Translations under genes and position numbers: made by a program
From: Thermoanaerobaculia bacterium
Lineage (GTDB): Bacteria; Acidobacteriota; Thermoanaerobaculia; UBA5066
Length of the DNA stretch: 64,000 nt
Assembly (NCBI GenBank): GCA_038214715.1
Contig: JBBQRP010000001.1
Span: 131,646-195,645 of the forward strand
Reading direction: 5' to 3'
The notes under the pieces: generated by a model
Told to the model about the DNA's origin: nothing
The model's database searches: none
The model's input: the letters and a program-made list of their open reading frames with translations, nothing else
Shown: positions 4,255 to 42,028 of the stretch, one piece after another
Numbering within the stretch: the stretch's first letter is position 1
Layout: every line of letters begins with the position of its first letter

Positions 4255-5429
4255 GGCAGGAGCCTCGGTGCCCAGGGGATTCCGCCCGCGATCGCTTCCC
4301 AGGCGCCGCGCCCGAGAACGAACGCCACGAGGGCGCCGCACGCGAGAAACAAGCCGAAAGGCACGTCGACCCGCGCGAGAAGGACGAGCAGCCCCCCGGG
4401 CGTGGGCACGGCGCGCACCGAGAGAACTCGGAAGAAATCGCCGCCGTCGTCCAGCACGAGCCGGCCGTACGCGGTCCCCTTCCCAAGACGGGCCCGCGAT
4501 CGCGCGAGCCTCACGAACGCGAGGAGGCGTCCGGCCGTCGGGACGTCCGCGCGGAGGCCGACGCCTTCGGGCGCCGCCCCCGGAATTTCCCGGTAGCGCG
4601 CCGAGGCGGAAAGCACGCGGCCGTCGTCGCCCACGAGAATGCCGGCGCGGGCCCCCGCCGCCCGGGCGGCACCGGACGACGCCCGCGCGCGCCGCGTCTC
4701 GACCGACCAGCGAAGGAGCCTCACGAGAGTCGCCCCGCCAGCGATGATCGTGCCCGCCAGCGAGGCGAAGAAGAGCGTCAGAAAAACGCCCGCGGGTCCC
4801 GTGAACGCTCCCGCCATCGCGAGCATCTTCACGTCTCCCCCGCCCATGCCCTCGATCCCGCGCACACGGGCGTACGCCCGCCGGACCGCTTCCAGGAAAA
4901 CCGCTCCGACGAGGGCTCCGACGCAGGCTTCGGCGAGGTGGCTCGTGAGGAGGCGGTGCACGAGGTCCGGGTCCTCTGACGCCGCGGCGCGGTCGCGGAG
5001 AGCCGCAAGGACGAGTCCGATGGCGAGCGTTCCGAGCGTCACCTCGTCGGGCAGCGTGCGCGACTCGAGATCGGCGGCCGCGAGGATCACGCAGGCAGCC
5101 CCGAGAAGGGCCGCCGAGGCCGCGACGAGAGAAGGCCCGTAAAGGATTCCCGCGGCGAGGAAGAGCAGCGCGACGAGAAGCTCGACGAGCGGATACCGGA
5201 CGCGGATGGGAGTCGCGCAGCGGCGGCAGCGGCCGCGGAGAAGGAGCCATGAAAGGATGGGAACGTTGTCGTAGAACGCGATCGGCGCCGCGCAGCCCGG
5301 ACAGCGCGAGCCCGGATGGACCACCGAGAGCCCGCGCGGCAGGCGGTGAATACAGACGTTCGCGAAGGAGCCCACGACGGCGCCGGTCACGAAGAAGAAG
5401 CTCAGGAGGAGGCCGTCCACGGCGCTCAC
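4251..5429 (-). CDS. pilD: Prepilin peptidase / N-methyltransferase (A24 family PilD) carrying an unusual ~150-aa C-terminal extension that ends in an extra TM helix.
   Basis: N-terminal Zn tetracysteine (CPGC...CRRC). Catalytic Asp motifs DLESRTLPD and GMGGGDVKM. The polytopic TM pattern is as expected. 392 aa versus a typical ~250-290. GTG start overlaps the stop of the upstream YfhO-like gene. Confidence 0.85.
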   Translation of the reverse strand: MSAVDGLLLSFFFVTGAVVGSFANVCIHRLPRGLSVVHPGSRCPGCAAPIAFYDNVPILSWLLLRGRCRRCATPIRVRYPLVELLVALLFLAAGILYGPSLVAASAALLGAACVILAAADLESRTLPDEVTLGTLAIGLVLAALRDRAAASEDPDLVHRLLTSHLAEACVGALVGAVFLEAVRRAYARVRGIEGMGGGDVKMLAMAGAFTGPAGVFLTLFFASLAGTIIAGGATLVRLLRWSVETRRARASSGAARAAGARAGILVGDDGRVLSASARYREIPGAAPEGVGLRADVPTAGRLLAFVRLARSRARLGKGTAYGRLVLDDGGDFFRVLSVRAVPTPGGLLVLLARVDVPFGLFLACGALVAFVLGRGAWEAIAGGIPWAPRLLP

Positions 5430-7790: not shown

Positions 7791-8300
7791 TTACCGCTGA
7801 GCGCCCGCGGGGTACTGAAGGAACTGGCCGTTGACGAAGATGATGTCGTCGTTGAAGTCCGTCGTCTCGCCGCCGTTGTTCGTTCCGACGGCTCCGTTCT
7901 TCCCGTTGGACACGATGGCGTAGGCCTGCTGGTTGCTGCCGCCCGTTCCGTAGAGGAAGTAGGAACTCCACCCGTCGACGAGGGGGAGGAGACGGATGTA
8001 CGTCGGAGCGACCTGCTTGTTGAAGCCCGCGCCCGCGGCGCCGAAGGTGGATCCGGCGCCGGGAATCGTGAGACCCGAGGGGAGGGTCAGCGCGGCCGCG
8101 GCGGGATAGTGGTTGAAGTCGACGGCATACGCTTCGGCGGCGGTACCGGCGGAGCGCATGTCGGCCATCGTGCGCTTCTGCTTGGCACGCTGGATGGCAT
8201 TGAGCAGGTTGGGAATGGCGATCGCGACGATGATGCCGATGATCGCGACGACGATCAGCAGCTCGATCAGCGTGAAGCCTTTGCTGTTCCTCTTCTTCAT
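7791..8300 (-). CDS. pilA: Type IVa pilin (major pilin candidate)
   Basis: Class III leader MKKRNSKG|FTLIELLIVVAIIGI (G-1, F+1, E+5). 169 aa. Gly/Thr/Ser-rich C-terminal half. Strong SD AGGAGG 8 nt upstream. Dedicated terminator downstream. Confidence 0.9.
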   Translation of the reverse strand: MKKRNSKGFTLIELLIVVAIIGIIVAIAIPNLLNAIQRAKQKRTMADMRSAGTAAEAYAVDFNHYPAAAALTLPSGLTIPGAGSTFGAAGAGFNKQVAPTYIRLLPLVDGWSSYFLYGTGGSNQQAYAIVSNGKNGAVGTNNGGETTDFNDDIIFVNGQFLQYPAGAQR

Positions 8301-24742: not shown

Positions 24743-26470
24743 TCAGATCGCTTCGTGCGAGATGGAGTCGCTGCTGATCGTGCACAGCGCTTCCCCCTGG
24801 ATCGGACCCTCCGCGACGGTGACGCAGTTTCGGCCGGCCTCCTTCGCTCGGTACAGCGCCGCGTCGGCGGCCCGGAGGAGAGCCGCGGCCCCCGGTGTCT
24901 GATGGGGTCCCGGTTCGTGAACGGCGAGCCCGATCGAGACCGTCGTCCCGCACTCGACGCCCGGAATGCGTATGTCCGCGACGGCCGCACGGGTCCTTTC
25001 GCAGCAGCGGTAGGCCTCTTCGCGCGAGATCTCCGGCAGAAGCAGGACGAACTCTTCCCCACCGAATCGCACGGCGAGGTCGGTCGCGCGCACGCACTCA
25101 CAAAGGCGCTCCCCCATCGCGATGAGCAGCCGGTCGCCCGCAAGATGCCCGAATCGGTCGTTGAAGTCCTTGAACCGGTCGAGATCCAGCACGGCGAGGG
25201 CGACCGCGCGTTTCGAGCGCCGGCTCCGGGCGAGCTCGAGCGCGATCCGGTCGAAGAGGCCGGTGCGATTTGGAAGGCCTGTCAGGGGGTCCGTGGCCGC
25301 GGCCGCGCGCAGGCGCGCCATCCGGTCCGCGACGACCGACAGGAACAGGACGGAGAACACGAGGAACGAGAGCCCGACGTATCGCGTCCTCACGCCCCAT
25401 GGAATGATCCCGAAGTCCTGTGTCATGTCGCGGAGAGCCGCGACGAAGATGCACCCGAACCCCACGAGAACGATCACCGCGTAGGGCGCCCGCCGGCGCA
25501 CCTTCCGGCCGAGAACCTGGATCACACGGACTCCGGACGCGATCACGGTCGCGTAGCAAAGCGGCAGGAGATGGTAGAGGTCGTCCACGCGCGGGAGCAC
25601 GAAGGCGACGACCATCCCGGCAAACTGGAGAGCGAGAAGGGCCCGGATCCAGCGCGGCAGCTTCAGGACGAAAAAATAGTGGAAGAAAAGGGTGAAGAGC
25701 ATGGACAGCGCGAACACGAGAGCGACGTTCGCGCGGAATATGAACGAGAGTGATACGCCGAACCGCGACCAGACCGAGAGCCACGAGACGACGTACGCGG
25801 CAACGCCCGCGGTCAGGAGGAAGAACAGCAGGAATTCACGCTGCCGGCGGTCCCTCAGGTAGACGAAGAGCGCGAAGAGTCCGAGCGAGAAGATGGCCGC
25901 CGCCACGAGGGCGAGCGGCGCCTCGAACATCGTGCGGTCCCAGCACGCTTCGGAAACCGTGTCGATTGCGGGAGCGGCGGTCAATCCTCCGCCGCGGGGG
26001 CCCGCGTTGAAGACGCGGATCGCGAGCACGTGTTCCCCCGGGACGATCGTGATCGCGGGCGGTAGCTCGTAAAGTCGCGCCTGAAGCGTCCCTTTGTCGT
26101 ACGCGGGAGGGAACGCGCCGGTGCCGCCCACTCTCACGCCGTCGAGAAACGTCTCGTCGACGTCGCGGATCTGGGAGCAGGTGAAGGCGAGCGAGTGCGC
26201 ACGTACCGCGGGCGACAGGGAGAACCGGAACCGGTACCAGGCGTAGCCGTGCGGGGCGACGCCGGCCTCCTGCCAGGATCCCGGGACCCGGATCGGACGG
26301 AAGGAAAGGGCGTCGAGGCCCGCGACTCCGCCCGGAGCGTCTCCGGTCGCGAACTCGGCAGCCGACGACAGGTCCGCGCGCAAGCCGTCCACGAGGAGCG
26401 GCGGGGAGCCCGCGCATAAGGGCAGCGAGGCGCCGAGCGCCAGCACGAGACTCCCAATGCACGCGCGCAT
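24743..26470 (-). CDS. Diguanylate cyclase with an N-terminal 7TMR-DISM sensor (extracellular DISMED2-like domain plus 7 TM) and a C-terminal GGDEF domain
   Basis: Signal peptide, a ~170-aa extracytoplasmic domain, seven hydrophobic helices, then RFGGEEFVLLLP (active GGEEF) with the rest of the GGDEF core. Confidence 0.9.
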   Translation of the reverse strand: MRACIGSLVLALGASLPLCAGSPPLLVDGLRADLSSAAEFATGDAPGGVAGLDALSFRPIRVPGSWQEAGVAPHGYAWYRFRFSLSPAVRAHSLAFTCSQIRDVDETFLDGVRVGGTGAFPPAYDKGTLQARLYELPPAITIVPGEHVLAIRVFNAGPRGGGLTAAPAIDTVSEACWDRTMFEAPLALVAAAIFSLGLFALFVYLRDRRQREFLLFFLLTAGVAAYVVSWLSVWSRFGVSLSFIFRANVALVFALSMLFTLFFHYFFVLKLPRWIRALLALQFAGMVVAFVLPRVDDLYHLLPLCYATVIASGVRVIQVLGRKVRRRAPYAVIVLVGFGCIFVAALRDMTQDFGIIPWGVRTRYVGLSFLVFSVLFLSVVADRMARLRAAAATDPLTGLPNRTGLFDRIALELARSRRSKRAVALAVLDLDRFKDFNDRFGHLAGDRLLIAMGERLCECVRATDLAVRFGGEEFVLLLPEISREEAYRCCERTRAAVADIRIPGVECGTTVSIGLAVHEPGPHQTPGAAALLRAADAALYRAKEAGRNCVTVAEGPIQGEALCTISSDSISHEAI

Positions 26471-28237: not shown

Positions 28238-28948
28238 ATGGAGCTCAAGGGACGGGTCGTCCTCATCACGGGCGCGGGGCGCGGAATCGGACGCGCGATG
28301 GCGCACGCTTTCGCGGCGGCGGGGGCAAAAGTAGCTCTGCTCGGCAAGACGAAGAAGAACCTCCTCGAGGTCCAGAAGGAGCTCAAGGACTCGGACGTCC
28401 CGACCGTCGTCCTCGCGGCGGACGTCTCCGACGAGGGCGCGGTCTCGCGGGCCGTCGCGGCCGCCGAGCAGCAGCTCGGACCCGTGGATGTCCTCGTGAA
28501 CAACGCGGGGATCTTCGTGATGGCGCCGGTCGAGAAGATGGATACGCTCGCCTTCGAGCGAACGCTCGCCGTCAACCTGCGCGGCCCGTTCCTCATGTCG
28601 CGCGCCCTGCTGCCCGGTATGAAGGCGCGCAAGCGGGGCCACATCGTGAACATCTCCTCGACCGCGGGGCGGCGCGGATTCGCGGGTGGCAGCGCGTATT
28701 GCGCGTCGAAATTCGGGCTCGCGGGCCTCACGGAGGCGATGCGGTACGAAGTCCGCACCTCCAACGTCCGGGTCACCTGCGTCTACCCGTCCACAGTGAA
28801 CACGGACCTCGCGAAGAAGGGCGGGTTGGATTTCGCGGAGGATCGCGTGATCCAGCCCGAGGACGTCGCGGCGGCGGTCGTCGCGCTCGTCGCGATGGAC
28901 GACCGCGCAATGCCGACGAGCCTCGAGATCTGGCAGACGAATCCGTGA
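28238..28948 (+). CDS. Short-chain dehydrogenase/reductase (SDR)
   Basis: TGAGRGIGRA Rossmann motif, NNAG, S...YCASK catalytic triad/tetrad spacing. Start at ATG 28238. The upstream part of the track ORF is not coding. Confidence 0.85.
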   Translation: MELKGRVVLITGAGRGIGRAMAHAFAAAGAKVALLGKTKKNLLEVQKELKDSDVPTVVLAADVSDEGAVSRAVAAAEQQLGPVDVLVNNAGIFVMAPVEKMDTLAFERTLAVNLRGPFLMSRALLPGMKARKRGHIVNISSTAGRRGFAGGSAYCASKFGLAGLTEAMRYEVRTSNVRVTCVYPSTVNTDLAKKGGLDFAEDRVIQPEDVAAAVVALVAMDDRAMPTSLEIWQTNP

Positions 28949-29718
28949 CGCGCCCCGCCGCGGGGGCGAGGCCGCACACGGCCGGCGCGGCGCCCCACGC
29001 GAAGGGCACGTCGCGCCCCCGTCCCCGCCACCACCACGTCGAGGCGCACTTCTCGGGCTCGGAAACGGTACGCGACGTGGTCCTCGGGATGTCCGACGGC
29101 CTCACGGTTCCCTTCGCGCTCGCGGCAGGCCTCTCGGGCGCGGTCGCGAGCTCCCGCGTGATCCTCGTGGCGGGCGTGGCCGAGCTGGCCGCGGGAGCAA
29201 TCGCGATGGGTCTCGGCGGATACCTCGCCGCCAAGAGCGAGACGGACACCTGGCACAGCGAGCTCAAACGGGAATACGACGAAGTGAAGGACGTCCCCAC
29301 CGAGGAGCAGGAAGAGGTCCGCAAGGTCTTCCGCGGATGGGGCCTCGAAGGAAGCACTCTCGAGGCGGCGACACACGCCGTCTGCGCCGATCACGACCGC
29401 TGGGTGGACTTCATGATGCGCGAGGAGCTCAACCTCTCGGAGCCCGACCCGAAGAGGGCCCGCGTGTCGGCGCTCACGATCGGGGGGTCGTACGTCGTCG
29501 GCGGCGCGATCCCGCTCGCGCCCTACCTCCTCGGGATGCCCGTCACCCGGGCGCTCGCCGTGTCCGTCGTCGTCACGCTCATCGCGCTCGCCATTTTCGG
29601 GGCGTTCAAGGGGAAGCTGACGGGGCGCCCGCTCGTGAGCGAAGCGCTCCGGACCGTCCTCGTCGGCGCGCTCGCGTCGGGAGCGGCGTACACTCTGGCG
29701 CGCCTGATTTCGGGCTGA
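28945..29718 (+). CDS. VIT1/CCC1-family (DUF125) membrane transporter (Fe/Mn)
   Basis: SETVRDVVLGMSDGLTVPFALAAGLSGA and a C-terminal 3-TM block. GTG start overlaps the SDR stop. Start is uncertain. Confidence 0.75.
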   Translation: MTRPAAGARPHTAGAAPHAKGTSRPRPRHHHVEAHFSGSETVRDVVLGMSDGLTVPFALAAGLSGAVASSRVILVAGVAELAAGAIAMGLGGYLAAKSETDTWHSELKREYDEVKDVPTEEQEEVRKVFRGWGLEGSTLEAATHAVCADHDRWVDFMMREELNLSEPDPKRARVSALTIGGSYVVGGAIPLAPYLLGMPVTRALAVSVVVTLIALAIFGAFKGKLTGRPLVSEALRTVLVGALASGAAYTLARLISG

Positions 29719-31648: not shown

Positions 31649-32538
31649 GCGAAGCCGTGACCCTCCCCGAACCGATGCCCCTGGAATTCAAGCCCGCCGA
31701 TTACAAGACCGATCTCAAGCCCGTCTGGTGCGCCGGTTGCGGCGACTTCGGCGTCCTGACCGGTCTCTATCGCGCGCTCACCGAAATGCAGGTCAAGCCG
31801 TGGGAGACCGTCGTCGTCTCGGGGATCGGCTGCTCCTCGCGCCTCCCGGGCTACGTCGACACGTACGGCGTGAACAGTCTGCACGGCCGGGCGCTTCCGC
31901 TCGCGGCGGGCGTCAAGGTCGCGCGTCCCGACCTCACGGTCATCGCGGTGGGTGGAGACGGCGACGGAATCGCGATCGGCGGCAACCACTTCATGCACGC
32001 CGCGCGGCGGAACCTCGACGTCACGTACCTCATCATGGACAACGAGATCTACGGGCTGACGAAGGGGCAGGCGGCTCCGACGACTCCCGCGGGCGACAAG
32101 ACGAAGTCGACTCACTACGGCAATCCGGAGCCTTCGGTCGACCCGTGCGAGTTCGCGATCTCGTTCGGCGCGACGTGGGTCGGGCGGGCATTCTCGGGAG
32201 ACCTCAAGGGAACCGTCGAGCTCATGGTGAGCGCCCTCTCCCACAAGGGATTCGCGTTCCTGAACATCATGTCCCCCTGCGTCACGTGGCGCGGCGACGA
32301 CCAGTTCAAGGCGCTCAAGGCGAAGCAGCGGCGAATTCCCGAAGGCCACGACGCCTCGTCACGGGCCGCGGCGCTCGCCTACACGCGCGAGACGGAGTTC
32401 GTCACGACCGGAATCCTCTACGCCGTCTCTCAGCCCACTCTTCTCGACCGCCTCGCGACCGTCAAGAAGAGCGCGCTCGCGGGCAAACCGCAGTCGACGG
32501 TCGCCGACATCATCAAGAGCTTTCAGCCGTCGTTCTGA
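31645..32538 (+). CDS. korB: 2-oxoacid:ferredoxin oxidoreductase, beta subunit (TPP-binding)
   Basis: CAGCGDFGVL, GIGCSSR, the TPP-binding motif GDGDGIAIGGNHF, and NEIYGLTKGQ. Confidence 0.9.
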   Translation: MSEAVTLPEPMPLEFKPADYKTDLKPVWCAGCGDFGVLTGLYRALTEMQVKPWETVVVSGIGCSSRLPGYVDTYGVNSLHGRALPLAAGVKVARPDLTVIAVGGDGDGIAIGGNHFMHAARRNLDVTYLIMDNEIYGLTKGQAAPTTPAGDKTKSTHYGNPEPSVDPCEFAISFGATWVGRAFSGDLKGTVELMVSALSHKGFAFLNIMSPCVTWRGDDQFKALKAKQRRIPEGHDASSRAAALAYTRETEFVTTGILYAVSQPTLLDRLATVKKSALAGKPQSTVADIIKSFQPSF

Positions 32539-32559
32539 CGGCGCTTCGCCACGGGGCTT

Positions 32560-32593
32560 GGGCCGCGAATCGCGCGGCCCTTTTCTTTTCTCC
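32560..32593 (+). terminator. Rho-independent terminator after korB
   Basis: GGGCCGCG-aatc-gCGCGGCCC stem followed by TTTTCTTTTCTCC. Confidence 0.6.
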
Positions 32594-32611
32594 TATCCGT
32601 TCATGCCGGGA

Positions 32612-33346
32612 TCACTTCGCCGTCCATTCCCGGAGCCGTGCCGGGGGCGTCGGTGTCGGAGCGAGGACATTCACGCTGGTCGTCGCTTTCCGGAGCGACG
32701 TTACGACCGCAAGCACCTGGACGGTCCTGGTTTGGGAAACCCCGTGCTCGTTGCGGATCTGCACACCGAACGAACCGATCTTGCGGAGACCAGCGGGCCA
32801 CGTGAACGGCTGCCTGCCGTAGTTGAAGACCCCGCCGACCTGGACGCCGTCAACCCAGATCGTCGACTTCGTGACCCAGTTGTCGCCGGTCAGCCAGAGA
32901 TTCCAGCGCGCCTCGTCCGCTCCCTGAATCCGGATCTGGTCAGGCTGCACGGGATTGAGGGTCGGAGGGTCGGAGGTGACCTTCACGGAGAAGACGTTCG
33001 AGGCGATGCCGTCGCGTTTGATCATGAACTCGAGTGCGCCCGGTGAATTGAGAAGCGGAAGCGAGTCCATCCAGGCCTCGATGTGCGTGCCGGCGATGCC
33101 GCCGATCAGGACCGTCTGGAACGGGAGGTTCTGCCGACGCACGTAAAGGGACCAGCGACCGGGATCCATGGGTCCGGAGGGCCAGAAGTCCCGGCCGTAG
33201 ACAATCACGCCGACAGACTTCTGCGTCGAGAACGTCGAGAGCTGGGCCGGGTTCAGTCCCGTGATGACGGGGGGCGCGGCCAGGAGGGAAGCCGGAAAGA
33301 CCAGGAGCGACACGAGCGCCACTCCGCACGTGACGACGCACTTCAT
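32612..33346 (-). CDS. Secreted hypothetical protein with IPT/TIG-like beta-sandwich repeats
   Basis: Signal peptide MKCVVTCGVALVSLLVFPASLLAAP. PVITGLNP.Q... and PTLNPVQPDQIRIQG resemble IPT/TIG starts. Confidence 0.6.
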   Translation of the reverse strand: MKCVVTCGVALVSLLVFPASLLAAPPVITGLNPAQLSTFSTQKSVGVIVYGRDFWPSGPMDPGRWSLYVRRQNLPFQTVLIGGIAGTHIEAWMDSLPLLNSPGALEFMIKRDGIASNVFSVKVTSDPPTLNPVQPDQIRIQGADEARWNLWLTGDNWVTKSTIWVDGVQVGGVFNYGRQPFTWPAGLRKIGSFGVQIRNEHGVSQTRTVQVLAVVTSLRKATTSVNVLAPTPTPPARLREWTAK

Positions 33347-33474
33347 CTGGGTCCCTCGTTTCTCTATCTCGTTCGAGTTGAGGTCATGTCACAAGCTCCC
33401 GGCGGCTCGTCCTCCTGTCGGATAATTACGAGATCAACTCGCCTGTTCCGCTCAATGGCTTCTAGAGTGATGCC

Positions 33475-34926
33475 TCAGCGCCCCCGCATCTCGTAGACGA
33501 AGCCCATGCCGGGGGTCTTCTTCGCCTCGAGCTCGGCACGGAATGCGCGCGCGGCGACCACGTCCGGGAATTCGCCCGCGACGACGCGATACCAGACGCC
33601 TTTGTCTCCGAGGTCGACCTCGACGGCGCGCGCGGTCGTCCTGAGCGCCGCTCCGAGCTTCTGCGCCTCCTTCGCGGCGCTCGCGCGGTCCTTCGTCGAC
33701 GAGAAATGGATGACGTAAACGGTGGGCTTTCCGCTCCAGTCCGGCGTCAGGAGAACGGCCGCCTTCCCGCGCGGCACGACGGGCGCGGGCTTCGCCGAAG
33801 GAGCCCCTGGCTTCGCCGAAGGAGCCGCCGGTTTCGCGACAACCGGAGCGGCGGTCGGGATCGCGGCGGGTACGGCCGTCGGCACTGGAGTTGGCTCGGC
33901 ACTCCTCGCCGCGACGGCTGGAGCAGGCTTCACGATCGCGTTCCGGAAAACGAATTCCCTCACGGCCCATGCGAGGAAGGCCCCGACCAGGGCGACGAGC
34001 GCGATCGCAACGATCCACCCTCTCAGTCCCGACCGGACGGCCGGAGGAGGAGGCTCATCGGCCGCCTTGAAGTGGAATTCCTCGATCGCCGGCTGTTCGG
34101 CGTCGTCCTCGAACACTTCGTCGAGAGGCGGGATCTCCGAGAAGGAGAGGGCCGCCGGCTCGTCGTGCACGTCGGGAGTCGCCGGAGCTTCCGGCTCCCG
34201 CGGATGCACGAGCGGAATCGAGGGAGCGGAGGCGACCGCCGGCCGCTCGAGCGGCGTCGGGGCGTCCTCCGGAAAATCGAACGAGAGCTCCGGTGCCGAA
34301 GGTGTCGCGTCGGGTATGTACGTGACCGGCGCGGGCGCGCCCGGAACCGGCACGGACTGCGGACGCGGCGGCACGAACGCGCCTGGCGCGAACGTGAGCG
34401 GTCGGAGAGGCTGTCCGCGCTCCCGCACGGATTCGATCGGCGCCGAGATCTCGGCGGGACCGCGCGACCGATGCGGGATCGGCAGGATCGCCGACCGGAA
34501 CGGCGCGTCCTCGGGCTGGATCGGGAGATCCTTCTCCCAGTTGAGATCCGAGCGGGACGCGAGATCCTGAAAAGGATCGTCGACGCCCGCGGCTTTCGGC
34601 GGCCCCGCCGGCGCGTCGCGCGCCGGAATCGGGCGCGCGGGGAAAACGGGCATCGGCGGCGGCGGAGCCTCCGAAACGGGAGTCCCGCTCCCATCTCTTT
34701 CGAGCTGCAGGCGCGCCCGTTTCACGAGAACGTCCAGCGGTGCGGCCTCGAATCCCTGCTTCACCTTCGCGAGCTCTTCGCCAACGACACCGCGCGCCGC
34801 CTTGAAGAGGACGGCCGGGTCCGCCGAGACGACCTTCGCGAGCTCCCGTACGACGTCCGTGACGGACGGCAGCATCCTCTTCCTCGGCCCGGGGTCGCGC
34901 GGAAAACCCGTGTCGAGCGGACTCAT
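33475..34926 (-). CDS. SPOR-domain protein: cytoplasmic N-terminal region, long Pro-rich linker, single TM, C-terminal peptidoglycan-binding SPOR domain
   Basis: TM helix GWIVAIALVALVGAFLAWAV. C-terminal YVIHFSSTKDRASAAKEAQKLGAAL...GVWYRVVAGEFPDVVAARAFRAEL fits the SPOR fold pattern. ATG start overlaps the upstream actin-like gene stop (ATGA). The upstream part of track ORF 33475..35307 is an artefact. Confidence 0.75.
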   Translation of the reverse strand: MSPLDTGFPRDPGPRKRMLPSVTDVVRELAKVVSADPAVLFKAARGVVGEELAKVKQGFEAAPLDVLVKRARLQLERDGSGTPVSEAPPPPMPVFPARPIPARDAPAGPPKAAGVDDPFQDLASRSDLNWEKDLPIQPEDAPFRSAILPIPHRSRGPAEISAPIESVRERGQPLRPLTFAPGAFVPPRPQSVPVPGAPAPVTYIPDATPSAPELSFDFPEDAPTPLERPAVASAPSIPLVHPREPEAPATPDVHDEPAALSFSEIPPLDEVFEDDAEQPAIEEFHFKAADEPPPPAVRSGLRGWIVAIALVALVGAFLAWAVREFVFRNAIVKPAPAVAARSAEPTPVPTAVPAAIPTAAPVVAKPAAPSAKPGAPSAKPAPVVPRGKAAVLLTPDWSGKPTVYVIHFSSTKDRASAAKEAQKLGAALRTTARAVEVDLGDKGVWYRVVAGEFPDVVAARAFRAELEAKKTPGMGFVYEMRGR

Positions 34927-35942
34927 GAGGAAAGGGGCTCCCAGTCTCCCTCGGGCGCGTCGAGCGCGATCGCGAGGCCCCCGTTCGAACCGGCGAAGAC
35001 GGGATCGTCGACGGTGCGGACCCGCCCGCCGCCGAGCTCGCCGAGCGTCTTCTCGAGCGCGGTCGCGAGGCCAGGGAGCTGCGAGCCCCCTCCCGCGAGA
35101 ACGATGTTGCGCTGCACCTTTTCCTGGTACTCGGGCTCGACCTTCGAGAGGAGGTCGAGCATCGTCTCGGCGATGGGGCCGACGACGCTCTCGCAGGCTT
35201 TCTTCATCTCTGCCGTGATGTCGACGTCCGCCGGCTTTCCCTTCACGGGGAACCGCACGACGACCGGGCCGGGCGGATTCCCGACGAAGCTGTGCTTTTC
35301 CTTCCACTCCCGGACCATGTGGATCGAGAAGCGACCGTCGGGATTCTTCGCCTTCACGAGCGTCATGAGCTGCTCGTCGATCGAATCGCCCGCGTGCGTG
35401 AGCGTGCGCTGGTCTTCGTCCGTCGGATAGCGTCCGTTCATCACGCAGAAATCCGTCGTTCCGGCGCCGATGTCGATGACCATCGTGTGGAGGAGCGCGT
35501 CCATCCCGTACGCGACCGCGAATGGCTCGGACACGATGAGGAGGGCGTCCGCGATTCCCTTCACGGCCGTCCTCAGGTGCTGCCGCGACACGCGCAGGGC
35601 CTCGGCGGGAACCCCGACGACGGCGTGCACGGCCTGGCCTTCCTTGCGGCCCGCGAGGGAGATGAGGTGTTTCAGGAGCTCGTGAACGGCTTCTTCGTCC
35701 TTCGCGGAGCCCTGCTTGATGAGACCGCGCTCGAGCGGCCGGTGCAGGTCGAGCATCGGGCGGTTCTCGAGAGCCTCGGCGCCGAACAGGATCGGCTTTT
35801 TCACGACCTTGCGGGCCACCATGTCGAGGGGCCAGCCTACGTAGCTCTCCACGACGTGGTGCGCGCCGTTCGAGGCCGTGATCGAGCTCCGCGAAGTGCC
35901 GAGATCGATCCCGACGTGGAGAACGTCTTTCTTCCCGCTCAT
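34923..35942 (-). CDS. Actin-like ATPase of the MamK-like branch (MreB/ParM superfamily)
   Basis: Phosphate-1 VGIDLGTS, phosphate-2/connect IDIGAGTTDFC, adenosine motif NIVLAGGGSQLPGL. Blocks YVGWPLDM, IVSEPFAVAYGMD, KEKHSFVGNP, VKGKPADVDITAEMKKACE, EPEYQEKVQRN and DDPVFAGSNGGLAIAL match my recollection of MamK better than MreB or FtsA. 339 aa. Confidence 0.8.
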   Translation of the reverse strand: MSGKKDVLHVGIDLGTSRSSITASNGAHHVVESYVGWPLDMVARKVVKKPILFGAEALENRPMLDLHRPLERGLIKQGSAKDEEAVHELLKHLISLAGRKEGQAVHAVVGVPAEALRVSRQHLRTAVKGIADALLIVSEPFAVAYGMDALLHTMVIDIGAGTTDFCVMNGRYPTDEDQRTLTHAGDSIDEQLMTLVKAKNPDGRFSIHMVREWKEKHSFVGNPPGPVVVRFPVKGKPADVDITAEMKKACESVVGPIAETMLDLLSKVEPEYQEKVQRNIVLAGGGSQLPGLATALEKTLGELGGGRVRTVDDPVFAGSNGGLAIALDAPEGDWEPLSS

Positions 35943-35943
35943 G

Positions 35944-36936
35944 TCAACTCCGTCTGGAGGGCGGATGGTTCCGCGCCTCCGCGTACGCGAGGATTCCGTT
36001 CGAAAGGGCCTGCGCGATCTGCTGACGATAACCGGAATCCTTCAAGTGTCTCGCTTCATCGTCGTTCGACACGGTCGAGACCTCCGCGAGAATGCCGGGC
36101 ATTTCCGTCGCGATGAGGACGACGAAGGGCGCGCTCCTCACGCCGCGGTCCTTCAGCCGGGGGACGACGGGCCTGAGAAAAGTCACGAGCCCGCCCTGCA
36201 CGGACTCCGCGAACTTCCGGGACTCTCCCTGCCGGGAGTCCGCGAGGACCCCCTCCAAAAGGCGCCGGAAGTCCGCCATCGTGTAGCCGGAGGAGCGGTT
36301 CTCGTCGCCCGCGAGCTGCTGCACGTGCGGGTCGGTGGTGGTCCCGAGGAAGTACGTCTCGACGCCGCGCGTCTCTTTCACCGACGGGAGCGAGTTCACG
36401 TGGATCGAGACGAAGAGGTCGGACTTCCGCGCGTTCGCGAAGAGGACCCGGTCCTTCAGGGAGAGCGTCGCGTCGACCTCGCGCGTCAGCGACACGGCGA
36501 CGTTCTCGGCGACGAGAAGGTCCCTGAGGCGGCGCGCGACGTCCAGCGTCACGTCCTTTTCCTTCACGCCGCACGCGATCGCGCCGGGGTCCGCCCCGCC
36601 GTGTCCGGGATCGATCACGACGGACCGCACTTCGAGCCGGAAGAGGGAAGGTTCGAGGCCGTCCGGTGCATTGATGACGCTCACGGGCGCCGCGGGCGCC
36701 GCGGACGGAGACGACACGACGAGAAAGTCCGTTCGTTCGCCCCGTCCCGTCGTCAGGGCGTTGATCGAAAGGAAGAGCGCGAGCGGCACGACGATGAAGA
36801 CGGACGTGCGGAACAGCGCGCGGCGGAACCTGTCCGAACGCCTCAGGCCCTTCGGGAGCCGGCCCTCGATGACGTCCCGGTTCTCGCGGATCGCGTCCTT
36901 GAGGATTGACTGCCGGAGCCGGTTCGCTTTCGTCAT
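35944..36936 (-). CDS. N-acetylmuramoyl-L-alanine amidase (Amidase_3, AmiC-like) with an N-terminal TM anchor
   Basis: Zn ligands in VIDPGHGGADPGA and SIHVNS. Followed by ETYF, then the catalytic Glu region. N-terminal helix VFIVVPLALFLSINAL. Confidence 0.85.
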   Translation of the reverse strand: MTKANRLRQSILKDAIRENRDVIEGRLPKGLRRSDRFRRALFRTSVFIVVPLALFLSINALTTGRGERTDFLVVSSPSAAPAAPVSVINAPDGLEPSLFRLEVRSVVIDPGHGGADPGAIACGVKEKDVTLDVARRLRDLLVAENVAVSLTREVDATLSLKDRVLFANARKSDLFVSIHVNSLPSVKETRGVETYFLGTTTDPHVQQLAGDENRSSGYTMADFRRLLEGVLADSRQGESRKFAESVQGGLVTFLRPVVPRLKDRGVRSAPFVVLIATEMPGILAEVSTVSNDDEARHLKDSGYRQQIAQALSNGILAYAEARNHPPSRRS

Positions 36937-36986
36937 GGAGCTCCCAAAAAGGGTAGCACCTGCACCCCGGAGCCGCCCCTAAAGGC

Positions 36987-37793
36987 TCAGAAGAGAGGGG
37001 CTTTCCCGATCGGGACGCGCAGGGACCGGGTCGCATCGGGGCGCGGCGCGACGGGCGGCCCCTTCGACTGGAGGAGAAACCGGGTCGCGGGCTGTGCCGG
37101 GCTCTTCAGGACCGTCTCGGGAGCGCCCTCCTCGGCGACGACACCGTCGGCGAGAACGACGACGTGCGTCGCGAAGTCGAGCACGAAATCCACGTCGTGC
37201 GTCGCCACGACGAGCGTCCTTCCCTCCGCGATGAGCCCCTCGAGCGAGCGCCCGAGCTCGTTGCGTCGCGCCGGATCGAGGGACGCCGTGGGCTCGTCCA
37301 TGAGGAGGAGCGGCGGCTCCATCGCGAGCGCTCGCGCGATGGCGACCCGCTGGGCTTCTCCGCCGGACATCTCGCGGGGGAACGCCTTCGCGAGATGGGG
37401 CACGCCGAGCGTGCCGAAGAGCTCGAGGGCGCGCGCGTCCGCGGCCTCCCTCGGTCGCCTCGCGACGTAGACGGGCGCAAGCGCGACGTTCTCGAGAGCC
37501 GTCAGATGCTCGAAGAGCCCATGGTACTGGAACACCATCCCGACCCGCGACCGGAGGGCCCGGAGCGCGGCTCCCGGCGGCAGCGCGCCCGCCGCGAGAG
37601 GCACGCCCGATACGTCGATGGCTCCTTCGTCGAACGCCTCGAGGCCGACGACCGTGCGGAGGATCGTCGTCTTGCCGCAGCCCGAGAGGCCCATGAGCGC
37701 AACGAGCTGGCCCGTGGGGACGGTCAGGTCGACTCCCTTGAGGACGCGCGTCGCCCCGCGCGAAAGCGTGAGGCCGCGAATCGTGAGCGCGGG
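36987..37793 (-). CDS. Polar amino-acid ABC transporter ATP-binding protein
   Basis: Walker A GLSGCGKTT, signature LSGGEAQRVAIARAL, Walker B LLLMDEPTASLD, H-loop. 268 aa. Confidence 0.9.
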   Translation of the reverse strand, partial: PALTIRGLTLSRGATRVLKGVDLTVPTGQLVALMGLSGCGKTTILRTVVGLEAFDEGAIDVSGVPLAAGALPPGAALRALRSRVGMVFQYHGLFEHLTALENVALAPVYVARRPREAADARALELFGTLGVPHLAKAFPREMSGGEAQRVAIARALAMEPPLLLMDEPTASLDPARRNELGRSLEGLIAEGRTLVVATHDVDFVLDFATHVVVLADGVVAEEGAPETVLKSPAQPATRFLLQSKGPPVAPRPDATRSLRVPIGKAPLF

Positions 37794-37798
37794 AGCCG

Positions 37799-39274
37799 TC
37801 ATGCCGAAGGCGCCCTCCAGCGCCCCTCGAGCCGCCGAGCGAGGCGCGACAGCGGCAGCGACATCGCGAGATAAAGCGCAGCGCAGAGCGCACCCGGAAG
37901 CGCCCAGCTCGCGATGTTCGTGGCGAAGATGGCCGTCTGCTTCGTGAGCTCGACGACGGTCACGACCGAGACGAGCGAGGAGTCCTTCAGGAGCGCGACG
38001 AAGTCGTTCGTCATGGGGGCGAGCGCGAGCCGGAACGCCTGCGGCCCGCGCACGAGTCTCAGGACCTGCCCTTCCGTCAGACCCAGCGTGCGCGCCGCCT
38101 CGAGCTGCGACCTCGGCACCGCCTCGAGGGCGCCGCGGTAGATCTCGCTCTCGTACGCGGCGTAGTTCAAGCCGAGGCCCAGGAGCGCCGCGACGAAGGC
38201 AGGAAGCCTGACGAATTCGGAAAGGCCGTAGTAGAGGACGAAGAGCTGGAGCAGGACCGGCGTCCCGCGCATGAGCTCGACGTACACGGTGAGGAGGAAC
38301 CTCACCGGAGCATTGCCGTACACCCGCCCGCTCGCGATGGCGATCCCCATCACCACCGCGAGCGCCATCGAGAGGCAGGACAGCACGATGGTGACGAGCG
38401 ACGCTTTCAGGAGCGACGGGAGATAGAGGAGAACGAGAGAGAAAGATTTCCGAGAGGGAGAAGAAGGGAGGGGCGTCAAAGCAATTCGCTTTTCTTCGTT
38501 TGCCTCGAACGCAGCCTGCTCGTCGTCCCAGACGTTCCACTTCTCGAAGATCTTCCGCAGCGTGCCGTCGCGCATCCTCTCCATCAGGATCGCGTCGACG
38601 CGGTCCCTCAGCGCTGCGCTCTCCCGCGCGAGAACGCCGACGTAGCGCCCCGTCGTGACGGCCCCTGGCTGGATCGCGAGACCCGGCACGCGCTTCACCG
38701 ACCGGGCCGCGAGGACGTGGTCGAGGAGAACGGCGTCCAAGCGGCCACCCGCGAGATCCTCGTACGGATGGACGTCGTCGTCGTAGGAGACGGGCTCGAG
38801 CCCCTGCGCCGTGGCCGCCGCGACGAGCGTGTCGTAGGCGATCGTGCCCGAGAGCGTGCCGACCTTCCGGCCCCTGAGGTCCGAGAGCGTGCGAAAGCGC
38901 GAGGCGTCTCCCGCGCGCACCGTCAGTACCTCGCGGAACTCGAAGTAGGGCCGCGTCACCGAGAGGGCCTTCCGGCGCTGGGGCGTGTCCTCGACGCCCG
39001 AAAAGCCGATCTCGAAGTCGCCGCGGGCGACGGACTGGTCGATCGTCTGGTACGCCACCTGAACGAAGAGCGGCTTTTTCCCGACGCCGAGCGCGAGGGC
39101 GGACGCGATCTCGACGTCGAAGCCGCGCACCTTCGAAGGATCGGCCGGGTCGGCCTCGACGAAGGGCGCACCGCCCTCCGCGTCGCCGCCCCATCGGAGA
39201 ACGCCCGGGTCCGGTTGCGCCGCGCGTGCCGCGCCCGCGAGCAGAAGGATCGCGGCGGCGACGGCCCGGGTCAC
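37799..39274 (-). CDS. Fused periplasmic substrate-binding domain (SBP_bac_3-like) plus ABC permease (polar amino-acid type)
   Basis: Signal peptide VTRAVAAAILLLAGAARA, then a ~230-aa SBP-like domain, then a TM block with the EAA loop EAARTLGLTEGQVLRLV. GTG 39274 overlaps the psd stop. The alternative ATG 39337 would overlap psd by 66 nt. Confidence 0.8.
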   Translation of the reverse strand: MTRAVAAAILLLAGAARAAQPDPGVLRWGGDAEGGAPFVEADPADPSKVRGFDVEIASALALGVGKKPLFVQVAYQTIDQSVARGDFEIGFSGVEDTPQRRKALSVTRPYFEFREVLTVRAGDASRFRTLSDLRGRKVGTLSGTIAYDTLVAAATAQGLEPVSYDDDVHPYEDLAGGRLDAVLLDHVLAARSVKRVPGLAIQPGAVTTGRYVGVLARESAALRDRVDAILMERMRDGTLRKIFEKWNVWDDEQAAFEANEEKRIALTPLPSSPSRKSFSLVLLYLPSLLKASLVTIVLSCLSMALAVVMGIAIASGRVYGNAPVRFLLTVYVELMRGTPVLLQLFVLYYGLSEFVRLPAFVAALLGLGLNYAAYESEIYRGALEAVPRSQLEAARTLGLTEGQVLRLVRGPQAFRLALAPMTNDFVALLKDSSLVSVVTVVELTKQTAIFATNIASWALPGALCAALYLAMSLPLSRLARRLEGRWRAPSA

Positions 39275-40128
39275 GGCCGGAAGGCTCCGAGGCGCTCCCC
39301 CGTCTTCACGGGTCCGAGGCCGCGGGAAGGCTCCCACTCCGGCGCCCTCTCTCCCCCCACGAGGAGGACGACCGTCGACCCGAGCTCGAACGCGCCGAGG
39401 TCGTCACCGGGCGCGCACGCAAGATCCGCGACGGGAAGACGCCCGCGCTTCGGCAGCGCCCGGCCCCCCAGCCAGCGCGGATCGACGACGACGCCCCCGA
39501 CGTGGGTCGCGGCGACCATGACCGCGGCGACGAGAAGGCCCTCGGCCTCGCGCACCCCTCGCGCGATCCAGTAGGCCCGCCGGTTCCGCACGTAGAGCCG
39601 CGGCGTCGCGGCCGTGGACGCCGCGTTGACCGGCCAGAGCTCCCCTTCCACGCGCCCGACGGCGACGCACGCGCCGGAGACCGGGACGTGGATGCGGTGA
39701 TAGTCCCGGGGCGCGAGATAGAGCGTCTGATAGTGAGCGGAGGAAAGCTCCGCGGCGAGGGGATCGCCGTCGAGAAGGTCGAGGAGCCCGTACGAAAGGC
39801 CCTTCGCCTGGAGGAGAGCACCCTCCGCGACCCGGCCGGACGCGATGACGCTCCCGTCGACGGGAGAGTTGATGCCCCCGGCGGCGGCGGGCGCCTGCGG
39901 CCGCAGATCCGGCCGGAGCCGTCGCGTGAAAAAATCGAGAATCGACTCGTATTCGGTGACGTCCTTTTCGGCCTCGCCGAGGTCCGCGCCGACGGCGGCG
40001 GCGAACCGGCCCAGAAGGGGGTGGCGCAGGGCTTTCGGAAGGCGCAGCCGGGCGAGTGCGCCGACGGCCGCGGAACCTGCCTTCTTCGGGTAAAGGAACA
40101 GGAGGTTCAGCGAGAGCGGCACGGGCAT
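39271..40128 (-). CDS. psd: Phosphatidylserine decarboxylase proenzyme
   Basis: N-terminal MPVPLSLNLLFLYPKK (compare E. coli LSLQYILPK). Self-cleavage motif FELGSTVVLL (LGST). The upstream 29 aa of the track ORF overlap the pckG leader and were rejected. Confidence 0.85.
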   Translation of the reverse strand: MPVPLSLNLLFLYPKKAGSAAVGALARLRLPKALRHPLLGRFAAAVGADLGEAEKDVTEYESILDFFTRRLRPDLRPQAPAAAGGINSPVDGSVIASGRVAEGALLQAKGLSYGLLDLLDGDPLAAELSSAHYQTLYLAPRDYHRIHVPVSGACVAVGRVEGELWPVNAASTAATPRLYVRNRRAYWIARGVREAEGLLVAAVMVAATHVGGVVVDPRWLGGRALPKRGRLPVADLACAPGDDLGAFELGSTVVLLVGGERAPEWEPSRGLGPVKTGERLGAFRP

Positions 40129-40213
40129 GTCCCAACCGTACCAGACGCAAGCCCCTGTGCTAACTTCCGCTACAGAAATCGTCGGCCGACGCGGCGCGCC
40201 GAAAGGAACTCCC

Positions 40214-42028
40214 ATGAGCTCACTTCTGACGCAAGCCTCGCTCAGCGGCCCCCTTTCGAAGAATCCTCATCTCCTCGCCTGGATCGAAGAATGCGTCCGC
40301 CTCACGAAACCCGACCGCGTCGTCTGGTGCGACGGCTCCGTCGCCGAGAAGGACGCGCTGACGAAAGAGGCTGTCGCTCTCGGAATTCTGATTCCCCTGA
40401 ACCAGGAGAAGCTGCCGGGCTGCTACCTCCACCGCTCGAATCCGAACGACGTCGCGCGCGTCGAGCACCTCACCTTCATCTGCACGAAGTCGAAGAACGA
40501 GGCGGGCCCGACGAACAACTGGATGGAGCCGGGTGACGCGTACCGCAAGCTCGGAGCCCTCTTCGACGGCTCGATGCGCGGCCGCACGCTGTACGTCGTG
40601 CCCTACGTCATGGGACCGATCGGCTCGCCGCTCGCGAAGATCGGCGTCGAGCTCACCGACAGCATCTACGTCGTCCTGAACATGCGCATCATGACGCGGA
40701 TGGGGCAGCCGGCCCTCGAAATGCTCGGCGCGTCGGACGACTTCAACCGAGGCCTCCACTCCACGCTCGACGTGAACCCGGAGCGCCGGTTCATCTGCCA
40801 TTTCCCCGAAGACAACACGATCTGGTCGATCGGGAGCGGCTACGGCGGGAACGTCCTCCTGGGAAAGAAATGCCTCGCGCTGCGCATCGGGTCCTACCTC
40901 GGCAGCCGCGAGGGCTGGATGGCCGAGCACATGCTCCTCATGGGCGTCGAAGACCCGCGCGGCGAGACGACCTACGTCGCCGCCGCGTTTCCGAGTGCGT
41001 GCGGCAAGACGAACTTCGCGATGCTCATTCCCCCGCGGCGGTTCCACGGCTGGAAGGTCTGGACCGTCGGCGACGACATCGTGTGGATGCGTCCGGGCAC
41101 CGACGGACGGCTCTGGGCGATCAACCCCGAGAACGGCTACTTCGGCGTGGCCCCCGGGACGAACGACGCGACGAATCCCACGGCGATGCGCACGATCAGC
41201 CGAGACACTCTCTACACGAACGTCGCGATGACGAAAGACGGCGACGTGTGGTGGGAGGGAAAGACCGCTGAGGCTCCCGACGAGCTCATCGACTGGCAAG
41301 GACGCCCGTGGAAAAAGGGCTCGACCGAGAAAGCCGCTCACCCGAACAGCCGTTTCACGGCCCCGATGGCGAACAACCCCGCGCTCTCGCCCCGCGCAAA
41401 CGACCTGCAGGGCGTGCCCGTCTCGGCGCTCGTGTTCGGGGGCCGGCGCAGCGACACGGTGCCGCTCGTCATGCAGTCTTTCAACTGGGCGCACGGCGTC
41501 TACCTCGGTGCGACGATGGGCTCCGAGACGACCGCCGCCGCGACCGGCAAGGTCGGCGTCGTCCGCCGAGACCCGATGGCGATGCTCCCCTTCTGCGGTT
41601 ACGACATGGGGAACTACTTCGGCCACTGGCTGGACATGGCGACCCGCATCCATCTCCTCCCGAAGATCTTCCAGGTGAACTGGTTCCGCAAAGGCGCGGA
41701 CGGACGATTCCTCTGGCCGGGCTTCGGCGACAACATGCGCGTCCTCAAGTGGATCATCGACCGCGCGCACGGACGCTCCGGGGCGCGGGAGACGGAATTC
41801 GGCTGGGTGCCGAAACAGGACGACTTCGACCTCTCAGGCCTCAATGTCCCGCTCGAGGACGTCGAGGAGGCCGAGTCGATCGACCGGGCCGCGTGGAAGC
41901 GCGAGCTCGTCGACCAGGAGGAGTTTTTCCGGAAGCTCGCGGCCACGATGCCGAAGGAGCTCGTCCTTCAGCGGGACCTCCTGATCGCGCGCCTCGAGCG
42001 CTACGAAAGGCTCAACCCGGGGATCTGA
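40214..42028 (+). CDS. pckG: Phosphoenolpyruvate carboxykinase (GTP)
   Basis: Kinase-1a FPSACGKTN. PEPCK-GTP blocks: YVVPYVMGPIGSP, SIGSGYGGN, WMAEHMLLMG. 604 aa from ATG 40214. Confidence 0.9.
   Translation: MSSLLTQASLSGPLSKNPHLLAWIEECVRLTKPDRVVWCDGSVAEKDALTKEAVALGILIPLNQEKLPGCYLHRSNPNDVARVEHLTFICTKSKNEAGPTNNWMEPGDAYRKLGALFDGSMRGRTLYVVPYVMGPIGSPLAKIGVELTDSIYVVLNMRIMTRMGQPALEMLGASDDFNRGLHSTLDVNPERRFICHFPEDNTIWSIGSGYGGNVLLGKKCLALRIGSYLGSREGWMAEHMLLMGVEDPRGETTYVAAAFPSACGKTNFAMLIPPRRFHGWKVWTVGDDIVWMRPGTDGRLWAINPENGYFGVAPGTNDATNPTAMRTISRDTLYTNVAMTKDGDVWWEGKTAEAPDELIDWQGRPWKKGSTEKAAHPNSRFTAPMANNPALSPRANDLQGVPVSALVFGGRRSDTVPLVMQSFNWAHGVYLGATMGSETTAAATGKVGVVRRDPMAMLPFCGYDMGNYFGHWLDMATRIHLLPKIFQVNWFRKGADGRFLWPGFGDNMRVLKWIIDRAHGRSGARETEFGWVPKQDDFDLSGLNVPLEDVEEAESIDRAAWKRELVDQEEFFRKLAATMPKELVLQRDLLIARLERYERLNPGI

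Follow-up and report, generated by a model that had tools for sequence, protein, structure and literature searches.

A peptidoglycan amidase, a MamK-like actin and a bitopic SPOR-domain protein are encoded by three consecutive, tightly spaced genes in a Thermoanaerobaculia bacterium. We hold with about even confidence that they make up a chromosomal module for cytoskeleton-directed peptidoglycan cleavage, in which an actin filament, the cytoplasmic tail of the amidase and the SPOR protein as an adaptor would be physically coupled. The genes lie in a stretch of 64,000 nucleotides (contig JBBQRP010000001.1, positions 131,646 to 195,645 of the forward strand), referred to here as the window; the coordinates of all features are collected in Table 1. 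A sequence-only reading of this DNA had treated the three genes as one unit. The amidase-actin pair proved to be the conserved part, shared across two clades and no fewer than three phyla, whereas the SPOR gene is accessory.

The strongest evidence is the constancy of the pair. A scan of genomes gave 80 GTDB loci with actins 62-91% identical to that of the window, their records labelled mostly Thermoanaerobaculia or Acidobacteriota, with a few Methylomirabilota, Binatia and others. All 78 loci having upstream sequence carry an Amidase_3 gene immediately upstream of the actin, and in about 60 of 81 loci the amidase stop is at most 5 nt from the actin start or overlaps it. The flanking genes vary among relatives. 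An amidase is also directly upstream of two more distant actins, P0124 (50% identity) and P0156 (42%). The relatives of P0124 constitute a large second clade, in which the names include Desulfobulbaceae, Desulfobacterales, Syntrophobacteraceae and Defluviicoccus; NCBI calls several of these actins 'MamK family actin-like protein', and the two that were checked have 48% and 54% identity with the window actin. Amid unrelated neighbours, the amidase overlaps the actin start both in contigs from Desulfobulbaceae and in the chromosome CP058705.1 of Defluviicoccus. A metagenome scan for this second clade returned 80 loci, 76 of them with upstream sequence, and the amidase precedes the actin in all 76, at spacings of -20 to +20 nt. 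The arrangement is thus conserved far beyond chance. In other MamK-like lineages the actin gene adjoins a che cluster or the gene of a coiled-coil protein, or, in the case of a BeeR-like gene, has no obvious partner; an amidase was looked for beside the BeeR-like locus and none was found. Since these other clades have different neighbours, the link to the amidase is specific to the clades described here.

The second line of evidence comes from the N-terminus of the amidase. It begins with a motif of about 20 residues (NRLRQSILKDAIRENRDVIEG in the window), which is followed by Pro-Pro-Arg, a basic patch, a hydrophobic segment, a variable linker and then the catalytic domain. The consensus of the motif is approximately RLKRxxLRxAVxENL. 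Among 67 sequences its mean column entropy is 1.66 bits, close to the 1.3-1.4 bits of the catalytic domain. The regions next to the motif (basic patch, hydrophobic segment, periplasmic linker) are much more variable, at 2.45-2.74 bits. Asn19 (N19) is invariant. The motif recurs across phyla (NRLRQSILKDAIRENRDVI and, in the other phyla, VRLKSTILRGVYNENLRI, GRRAILHRVFENNLGI, KIRQDILRGVYEENL and QRQAVLRAVGEDNRAL), including amidases adjoining the MamK-like actins of Desulfobulbaceae, Defluviicoccus and other metagenome loci. Of the 61 amidase N-termini that are complete in the second clade, 54 carry it. From the sequences we infer that this motif docks on the actin.

The enzyme itself is a peptidoglycan amidase of the AmiA/B/C type whose catalytic site, judged from alignments, is intact. 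It matches Pfam Amidase_3 with an E value of 7.6e-47 (160 bits, cutoff 27), and in this search neither an AMIN domain nor any further Pfam domain was detected in it. The alignment with E. coli AmiA (8C2O) and AmiC (4BIN) and with Bartonella AmiB (3NE8) runs unbroken through the regulatory insert, whereas amidases that lack the insert (CwlV, LytH) align only up to about residue 200. Invariant in the 67 homologues are the Zn ligands H112, E126 and H179, the catalytic E285, N181, and E212, which lies within the insert. The insert has an entropy of 1.36 bits, on par with the catalytic core. Autoinhibition of the window amidase is predicted from the homology of this insert.

The actin had been described, from the letters alone, as a MamK homologue rather than MreB, FtsA or ParM. 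The exclusion of the other families was borne out by profiles, structure and phylogeny alike; its placement relative to MamK needs a qualification, given below. Against the NCBIfam MamK profile (NF040964) the actin scores 375.5 bits, just under the cutoff of 400, in a full-length match of residues 8-338 to 1-331 of 335. The other profiles score much lower: 219 bits for BeeR (NF053558, cutoff 530), 72.4 bits (NF010539, cutoff 293) and 57.6 bits (TIGR00904, cutoff 366) for MreB, and 21 bits for FtsA, and the ParM profile gave no hit in the same NCBIfam search. In the PDB sequence search MamK 5LJW came first with 255 bits, followed by BeeR (156) and MreB (about 50). Identity to MamK of AMB-1 is 38.7% over a gapless 333 residues. 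The AlphaFold2 (AF2) model of the actin, with a predicted local distance difference test score (pLDDT) of 91.6 and a first strand from residue 7, was matched by Foldseek to the MamK filament 5LJV (TM-score 0.92/0.95, root-mean-square deviation 1.6 A, E 1e-38); BeeR (TM-score 0.88) and MreB (about 0.79) ranked lower. The nucleotide-binding motifs DLGTS, VSEPFAVAYG, DIGAGTTD and LAGGGS are present, and so is the counterpart of MamK's catalytic Glu (in VSEPF). Read from the sequence, the protein lacks both an amphipathic helix at its N-terminus and a membrane-targeting sequence at its C-terminus.

Phylogeny was addressed with a 75-taxon neighbour-joining tree (200 bootstraps), repeated with ten second-clade members added (150 replicates). 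MreB stands apart from the whole set of MamK-like sequences in 200/200 bootstraps. The window actin and its relatives form a clade of their own in 197/200, and in 148/150 after the second-clade members were added. The magnetosomal MamK clade is recovered in 154/200 and that of BeeR in 195/200. The window clade adjoins the MamK core (the AMB-1 group) in only 3/200. The enlarged tree gives the same picture, with MamK falling inside the smallest clade that unites both amidase-linked groups in 15/150 replicates. Because it lies outside the MamK clade in the neighbour-joining tree, the window actin is MamK-like but not MamK sensu stricto, in keeping with its score below the NCBIfam cutoff. When the window and 91 loci (0.96 Mb) were screened for a true MreB, only the MamK-like genes matched, at 54-64 bits.

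The superfamily contains a few further arrangements. Actin P0134 (43% identical to that of the window) lies inside a chemotaxis cluster in the order CheA/CheW, CheC, CheD, actin, hypothetical protein, CheC (L090:1-4507), which suggests another cargo for the superfamily. A separate clade consists of proteins of 500-1230 aa with a C-terminal MamK-like domain (P0129, P0135-P0137, P0139, P0142-P0149, P0161). We considered them as possible amidase fusions and rejected the idea, as the 200-900 residues that precede the domain have no Pfam match. In one Thermoanaerobaculia metagenome-assembled genome (MAG) the C-terminus of the amidase and the actin share one stop-free frame (L052:5392-7053); this is probably an assembly frameshift and not a true fusion. 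The Defluviicoccus amidase is split into two genes in the NCBI record and is intact on the Logan contig. The pair in Defluviicoccus sp. CP058705.1 (L096:8379-11517 and L097) is followed by feoA-feoA-feoB-feoC, genes of ferrous iron uptake.

The third gene of the window encodes a protein with a Pfam SPOR domain at residues 401-469 (E 8e-7, 29.7 bits, cutoff 21); NCBIfam gave no hit for the protein as a whole. It had been taken for a bitopic protein, and the model (AF2, built with a 44-sequence alignment) agrees, with a single predicted helix between the N-terminal region and the SPOR domain. As the SPOR domain must reach the peptidoglycan, the N-terminus would be cytoplasmic. The N-terminal region starts with a three-helix domain that has many invariant columns among the 44 homologues and no significant fold match in Foldseek. 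A long disordered linker follows, with conserved positions at P118, F119, W130-K132 and A141-A146. Between residues 110 and 155 this linker contains the near-invariant short motifs DDPF, WEK and APFRSA.LP.P, which are candidate docking sites for further partners. A Pro/Ala-rich linker connects the transmembrane helix to the SPOR fold, for which Foldseek found a weak match in the SPOR domain of RlpA (6I09, probability 0.72). The family is small: it has 135 homologues, and all hits with a named source are from Thermoanaerobaculia or Acidobacteriota.

The distribution of the SPOR gene is quite different from that of the pair. Of 24 loci in the window's subclade (actins at least 73% identical), 13 have a SPOR gene directly behind the actin, compared with one of 59 in the sister group of Thermoanaerobaculia (62-68% identical). 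There the gene downstream of the actin codes for a NUDIX protein, a hydrolase, LigA or prephenate dehydrogenase, or lies on the opposite strand. Hidden Markov models (HMMs) of the SPOR domain and of the N-terminal domain found the same protein behind the actin only in the window's subclade. There the iterated HMM of the N-terminal domain matched in all 19 loci with downstream sequence, except the Methylomirabilota-labelled ones.

A different SPOR protein directly follows the actin in 23-26 of the 80 loci of the second clade. Its N-terminal receiver domain is joined by an acidic linker to a transmembrane helix, and a further linker leads to the SPOR domain (Pfam Response_reg and SPOR). The phospho-acceptor Asp57 (D57) of the receiver is replaced in 24 of 25 sequences, and for this reason we regard it as a pseudo-receiver, probably a binding module. 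One Acidobacteriota locus has a third kind of protein after the actin, with a helix-turn-helix-like (HTH-like) N-terminal region. The cytoplasmic domains of the two clades are not homologous, which indicates independent acquisition. On this comparison of sequences, a bitopic SPOR protein has been placed behind the amidase-actin pair at least two, perhaps three, independent times. The role of transmembrane adaptor between filament and amidase, which had been proposed for the SPOR protein, is to be modified. The amidase has a conserved cytoplasmic motif of its own and so needs no SPOR adaptor; the SPOR protein is better seen as an optional second membrane-spanning partner.

How might such a module work? 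We envisage that the actin polymerises under the cytoplasmic membrane, for which it has no targeting helix of its own. The co-translated amidase would dock on the filament by its cytoplasmic N-terminal helix, and the filament would thus set where an autoinhibited amidase of the AmiA/B/C type sits and cuts. Where a SPOR protein is present, its cytoplasmic head would also dock on the filament. SPOR domains bind denuded glycan strands, stripped of their peptides, which are the product of amidases. Because the SPOR domain binds this product, the three-gene version would focus cleavage at sites already processed: the SPOR domain would tie the filament to them and create a self-reinforcing focus. 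The logic would resemble that of the FtsA-FtsN-AmiB/C loop of E. coli, built from non-orthologous parts. The process served would most probably be the splitting of the septum or the separation of daughter cells.

A wider version of this proposal can be put forward more tentatively, and we consider it possible rather than probable. A widespread and so far unrecognised branch of the MamK/BeeR superfamily, in Thermoanaerobaculia, Desulfobacterota and some Alphaproteobacteria, would hold an amidase by its N-terminal helix, and lineage-specific SPOR proteins with three-helix, pseudo-receiver or HTH heads would close a product-sensing loop. Such a cytoskeleton would direct the hydrolysis of the wall, not its synthesis or the placing of cargo. 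Holding an amidase might even be a non-magnetosome function of the family from which magnetosomal MamK may have been recruited.

Several observations weigh against the coupled module. The SPOR gene is absent beside most pairs and is consequently not essential to it. Polymerisation of the window actin is something we infer from its family membership; in MamK a change of A278 to Asp blocks polymerisation, and the equivalent residue of the window actin is Glu274, while its relatives have A, S, Q or E there. The amidase-linked groups form a single clade in only 16% of the neighbour-joining replicates. The N-terminus of the amidase could be a long Tat- or Sec-type signal that is cleaved, in which case the mature enzyme would not be tethered. 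Finally, no fts (division) or mre (elongation) genes are found near the module to fix the cellular process.

The leading alternative, which we judge unlikely, is co-regulation without contact. The actin would be a general morphogenetic protein, an MreB- or FtsA-like replacement or paralogue, expressed together with an amidase and a SPOR protein that are merely other envelope genes, and the tail of the amidase would be there for a different partner, for instance a divisome protein or an activator. In its favour, public annotations name these actins 'rod shape-determining protein MreB'. That name is unsupported by the profile scores (72 bits against the MreB cutoff of 293), and there is no mreCD, rodA or rodZ near the module. 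Clustering of cell-wall genes is common, and a periplasmic link between SPOR domain and amidase alone would explain the co-occurrence of those two. Simple co-regulation, however, rarely preserves strict adjacency, whereas the pair is adjacent in 154 of 154 informative loci across phyla, mostly overlapping or nearly abutting, while the other neighbours change. The presence of the tail motif in the actin-linked amidases also weighs against this alternative.

A role coupled to export is distinctly less probable. Here the motif would be the extended n-region of a Tat (twin-arginine translocation)- or Sec-type signal, and the actin would act on the precursor, by delivering it to the translocon or by holding it, without a tether. 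E. coli AmiA and AmiC are Tat substrates. In 55 of 70 amidase homologues RR occurs at most 10 residues upstream of the hydrophobic segment, and the window amidase has FRRALF, a possible INA/L cleavage site and a short hydrophobic core that contains Pro. The strict RRx-hydrophobic-hydrophobic pattern, however, is present in only 11 of the 70, so that a Tat-like RR is frequent but non-canonical, and no AxA site is conserved across the family. The median Kyte-Doolittle hydropathy of the segment is 1.9 across the family, the level of a transmembrane anchor; in the window the best 19-mer reaches 2.13 and the uncharged stretch is 21 aa long. Moreover, it would be unusual for the n-region of a signal to stay conserved along 20 residues and between phyla. 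The claim of a membrane-anchored amidase is therefore plausible on hydropathy, although a cleavable signal is also compatible with the segment.

Positioning of an organelle or other cargo in the manner of MamK (a magnetosome-like or other compartment), with the amidase an incidental or relic neighbour, is very improbable. MamK is the nearest characterised relative of the actin, a VIT1-type iron transporter lies about 4 kb off, and feoAB follow the pair in Defluviicoccus. But VIT1 and feo are common housekeeping genes and not conserved neighbours, the amidase being the sole conserved one, and in the tree the actin is not part of the MamK sensu stricto clade. As the sequence-only reading had noted, nothing in the surroundings speaks of magnetosomes: none of the approximately 35 window open reading frames scanned with Pfam matched a mam or mms family, nor did the syntenic loci contain magnetosome genes, only housekeeping genes. 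That the actin is a plasmid or phage segregation protein (Alp/ParM-like) beside an amidase by chance is hardly credible: many divergent bacterial actins are segregation proteins of mobile elements, but tblastn with this actin gave no hit in 72,556 plasmids and 50,697 phages, the ParM profile did not match it, and the gene has a chromosomal housekeeping context on contigs of 0.28-5 Mb with no ParR-like gene or centromere.

The coupled module can now be set against known systems. Bacterial actins are known for wall synthesis (MreB), anchoring of the divisome (FtsA), DNA segregation (ParM and the Alps) and alignment of organelles (MamK). MamK (5JYG, 5LJV, 5LJW) is the closest characterised homologue, with the same nucleotide-binding motifs and fold, and like MamK the window actin, having no membrane-binding helix of its own, would need adaptor proteins. 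It differs from MamK in being outside a magnetosome gene cluster, in having Glu as the A278 equivalent and in its conserved partner, which is a peptidoglycan amidase and not MamJ or MamY.

Two MamK-related actins outside magnetotactic bacteria were found in open-access papers and bioRxiv, and neither is linked to an amidase. BeeR (8R2N), from Verrucomicrobiota, forms a three-stranded tube of unknown function (PMC11929497). It is the second-best match to the window actin in both sequence and structure and likewise comes from non-magnetotactic hosts, but it belongs to a separate clade and has a disordered N-terminal extension of 30-50 aa that the window actin lacks. Bbp (big bacteria protein) is an actin of large bacteria, encoded in an operon with a hypothetical protein and a Kelch-domain protein (PMC10580974). 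It shares with the window actin the MamK fold, a small conserved operon, non-magnetotactic hosts and presence besides MreB (PMC10580974). Its operon has no amidase or SPOR gene; the two are set apart here by the description of the operon, not by sequence.

Among wall-associated systems, the nearest in composition is FtsA-FtsN-AmiA/B/C of E. coli, which also combines a cytoplasmic actin-fold protein, a bitopic protein whose N-terminus is cytoplasmic and whose periplasmic SPOR domain binds denuded glycan, and an autoinhibited Amidase_3 enzyme that produces such glycan. The parts differ in each case. The window actin is MamK-like, with an FtsA profile score of only 21 bits, and the three window genes are in one operon. 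The cytoplasmic part of the window SPOR protein has 300 residues with a three-helix domain, compared with the short peptide of FtsN. Where AmiA/B/C have an AMIN domain or a plain Tat signal, the window amidase carries a cytoplasmic tail and a membrane segment. In the MreB-RodZ system (2WUS) an actin filament is likewise coupled to periplasmic wall enzymes by a bitopic actin-binding protein, and the HTH-like protein of locus L048, with its transmembrane helix and SPOR domain, is reminiscent of RodZ. MreB, however, guides synthases (RodA/PBP2) rather than a hydrolase and binds the membrane itself. In sum, an actin-like cytoskeleton coupled to wall enzymes is a kind of system already known, and the module itself is apparently undescribed: in open-access papers and bioRxiv we found no published description of an amidase-actin(-SPOR) module.

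If the proposed coupling is true, bacterial actins would have a new job: controlling, from the cytoplasmic side, where peptidoglycan is cleaved. Some of the MamK-like proteins outside magnetotactic bacteria would then have a function that can be tested, which BeeR and Bbp still lack, and poorly studied phyla would have an alternative to AMIN- or FtsN-based targeting of amidases. Thousands of entries named 'rod shape-determining protein MreB' could also be corrected. Tests of interaction have reagents at hand in the short tail motif and in the cytoplasmic heads of the SPOR proteins, of which there are three kinds.

Table 1. Features of the amidase-actin-SPOR genes and of related SPOR proteins (window positions, or positions in the named locus)
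Feature	Residues	Position	Strand	Basis
Peptidoglycan amidase, 330 aa; Amidase_3, AmiA/B/C type with regulatory insert		35944..36936	-	Pfam and alignments
Amidase: conserved cytoplasmic N-terminal motif NRLRQSILKDAIRENRDVIEGR, candidate actin-docking helix	5-26	36859..36924	-	Column entropy
Amidase: hydrophobic segment, signal-anchor or export signal	40-62	36751..36819	-	Kyte-Doolittle
Amidase: regulatory insert (autoinhibitory-helix type)	200-250	36187..36339	-	Alignment to AmiA/AmiB/AmiC insert
MamK-like actin-fold ATPase, 339 aa; amidase-linked clade		34923..35942	-	NCBIfam, PDB search, AF2, tree
Bitopic SPOR protein, 483 aa		33475..34926	-	Pfam SPOR, AF2
SPOR protein: cytoplasmic N-terminal three-helix domain (helices 22-32, 37-56, 64-78)	18-80	34687..34875	-	AF2, pLDDT >90
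SPOR protein: Pro-rich disordered cytoplasmic linker	81-300	34027..34686	-	pLDDT <60
SPOR protein: transmembrane helix	301-328	33943..34026	-	AF2, pLDDT 80-90; hydrophobic stretch at residue 303
SPOR protein: periplasmic SPOR domain (strand-helix-strand-strand-helix)	~390-470	33517..33759	-	AF2, pLDDT ~75
Receiver-transmembrane-SPOR proteins, examples from a second-clade subclade		L125:5043-6014; L175:5031-6674; L153:5037-6269; ~20 further loci
HTH-like (YYRWKAKY-type)-transmembrane-SPOR protein after actin, single Acidobacteriota locus		L048:3732-4568

The window has a G+C content of about 69%, and the relatives nearest to it in the databases are Thermoanaerobaculia MAGs, of the phylum Acidobacteriota. 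The three open reading frames were found where they had been reported, all on the minus strand. They close a row of six co-directional genes in the order psd, a fused solute-binding/permease gene of the ATP-binding cassette (ABC) type, ABC ATPase, amidase, actin and SPOR gene. The 50 nt between ABC ATPase and amidase and the ATGA overlap of actin stop and SPOR start are as described earlier; the gap between amidase and actin, given as 2 nt, is in fact 1 nt (TGA c ATG). NCBI starts the SPOR protein at Met18 (P0271, 466 aa). The overlapping ATG column, however, is kept in homologues in which Met18 is replaced, and the start at the ATGA overlap is for that reason better supported. A scan of 32400-40600 for promoters and terminators yielded no informative sites on the minus strand, so that the operon boundaries are drawn from spacing.

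Two sets of neighbours were considered as parts of the module and rejected. The psd gene and the amino-acid ABC transporter genes are kept in the locus with 88% actin identity and replaced in the 81%-identical one, where an AAA_5 gene and the nuo operon are the flanks. An open reading frame on the minus strand at 32612-33346, 128 nt downstream of the SPOR gene, encodes a protein of 244 aa that has a signal peptide and matches no Pfam family; its local G+C is slightly lower, and the 88%-identical locus (L001) lacks it at this position.

Farther away, on the plus strand at 28699-29718, about 4 kb from the SPOR gene and past genes for 2-oxoacid:ferredoxin oxidoreductase, is a VIT1/CCC1-type iron/manganese transporter; it is a common gene, syntenic in L001 and unaccompanied by magnetosome genes. 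A GGDEF protein is encoded at 24743-26470, and genes of the type IV pilus or type II secretion system kind lie at 22-1320, 4251-5429 and 7791-8300 (a PilB-like ATPase, a prepilin peptidase and a pilin-like protein); all of these are unrelated to the module.

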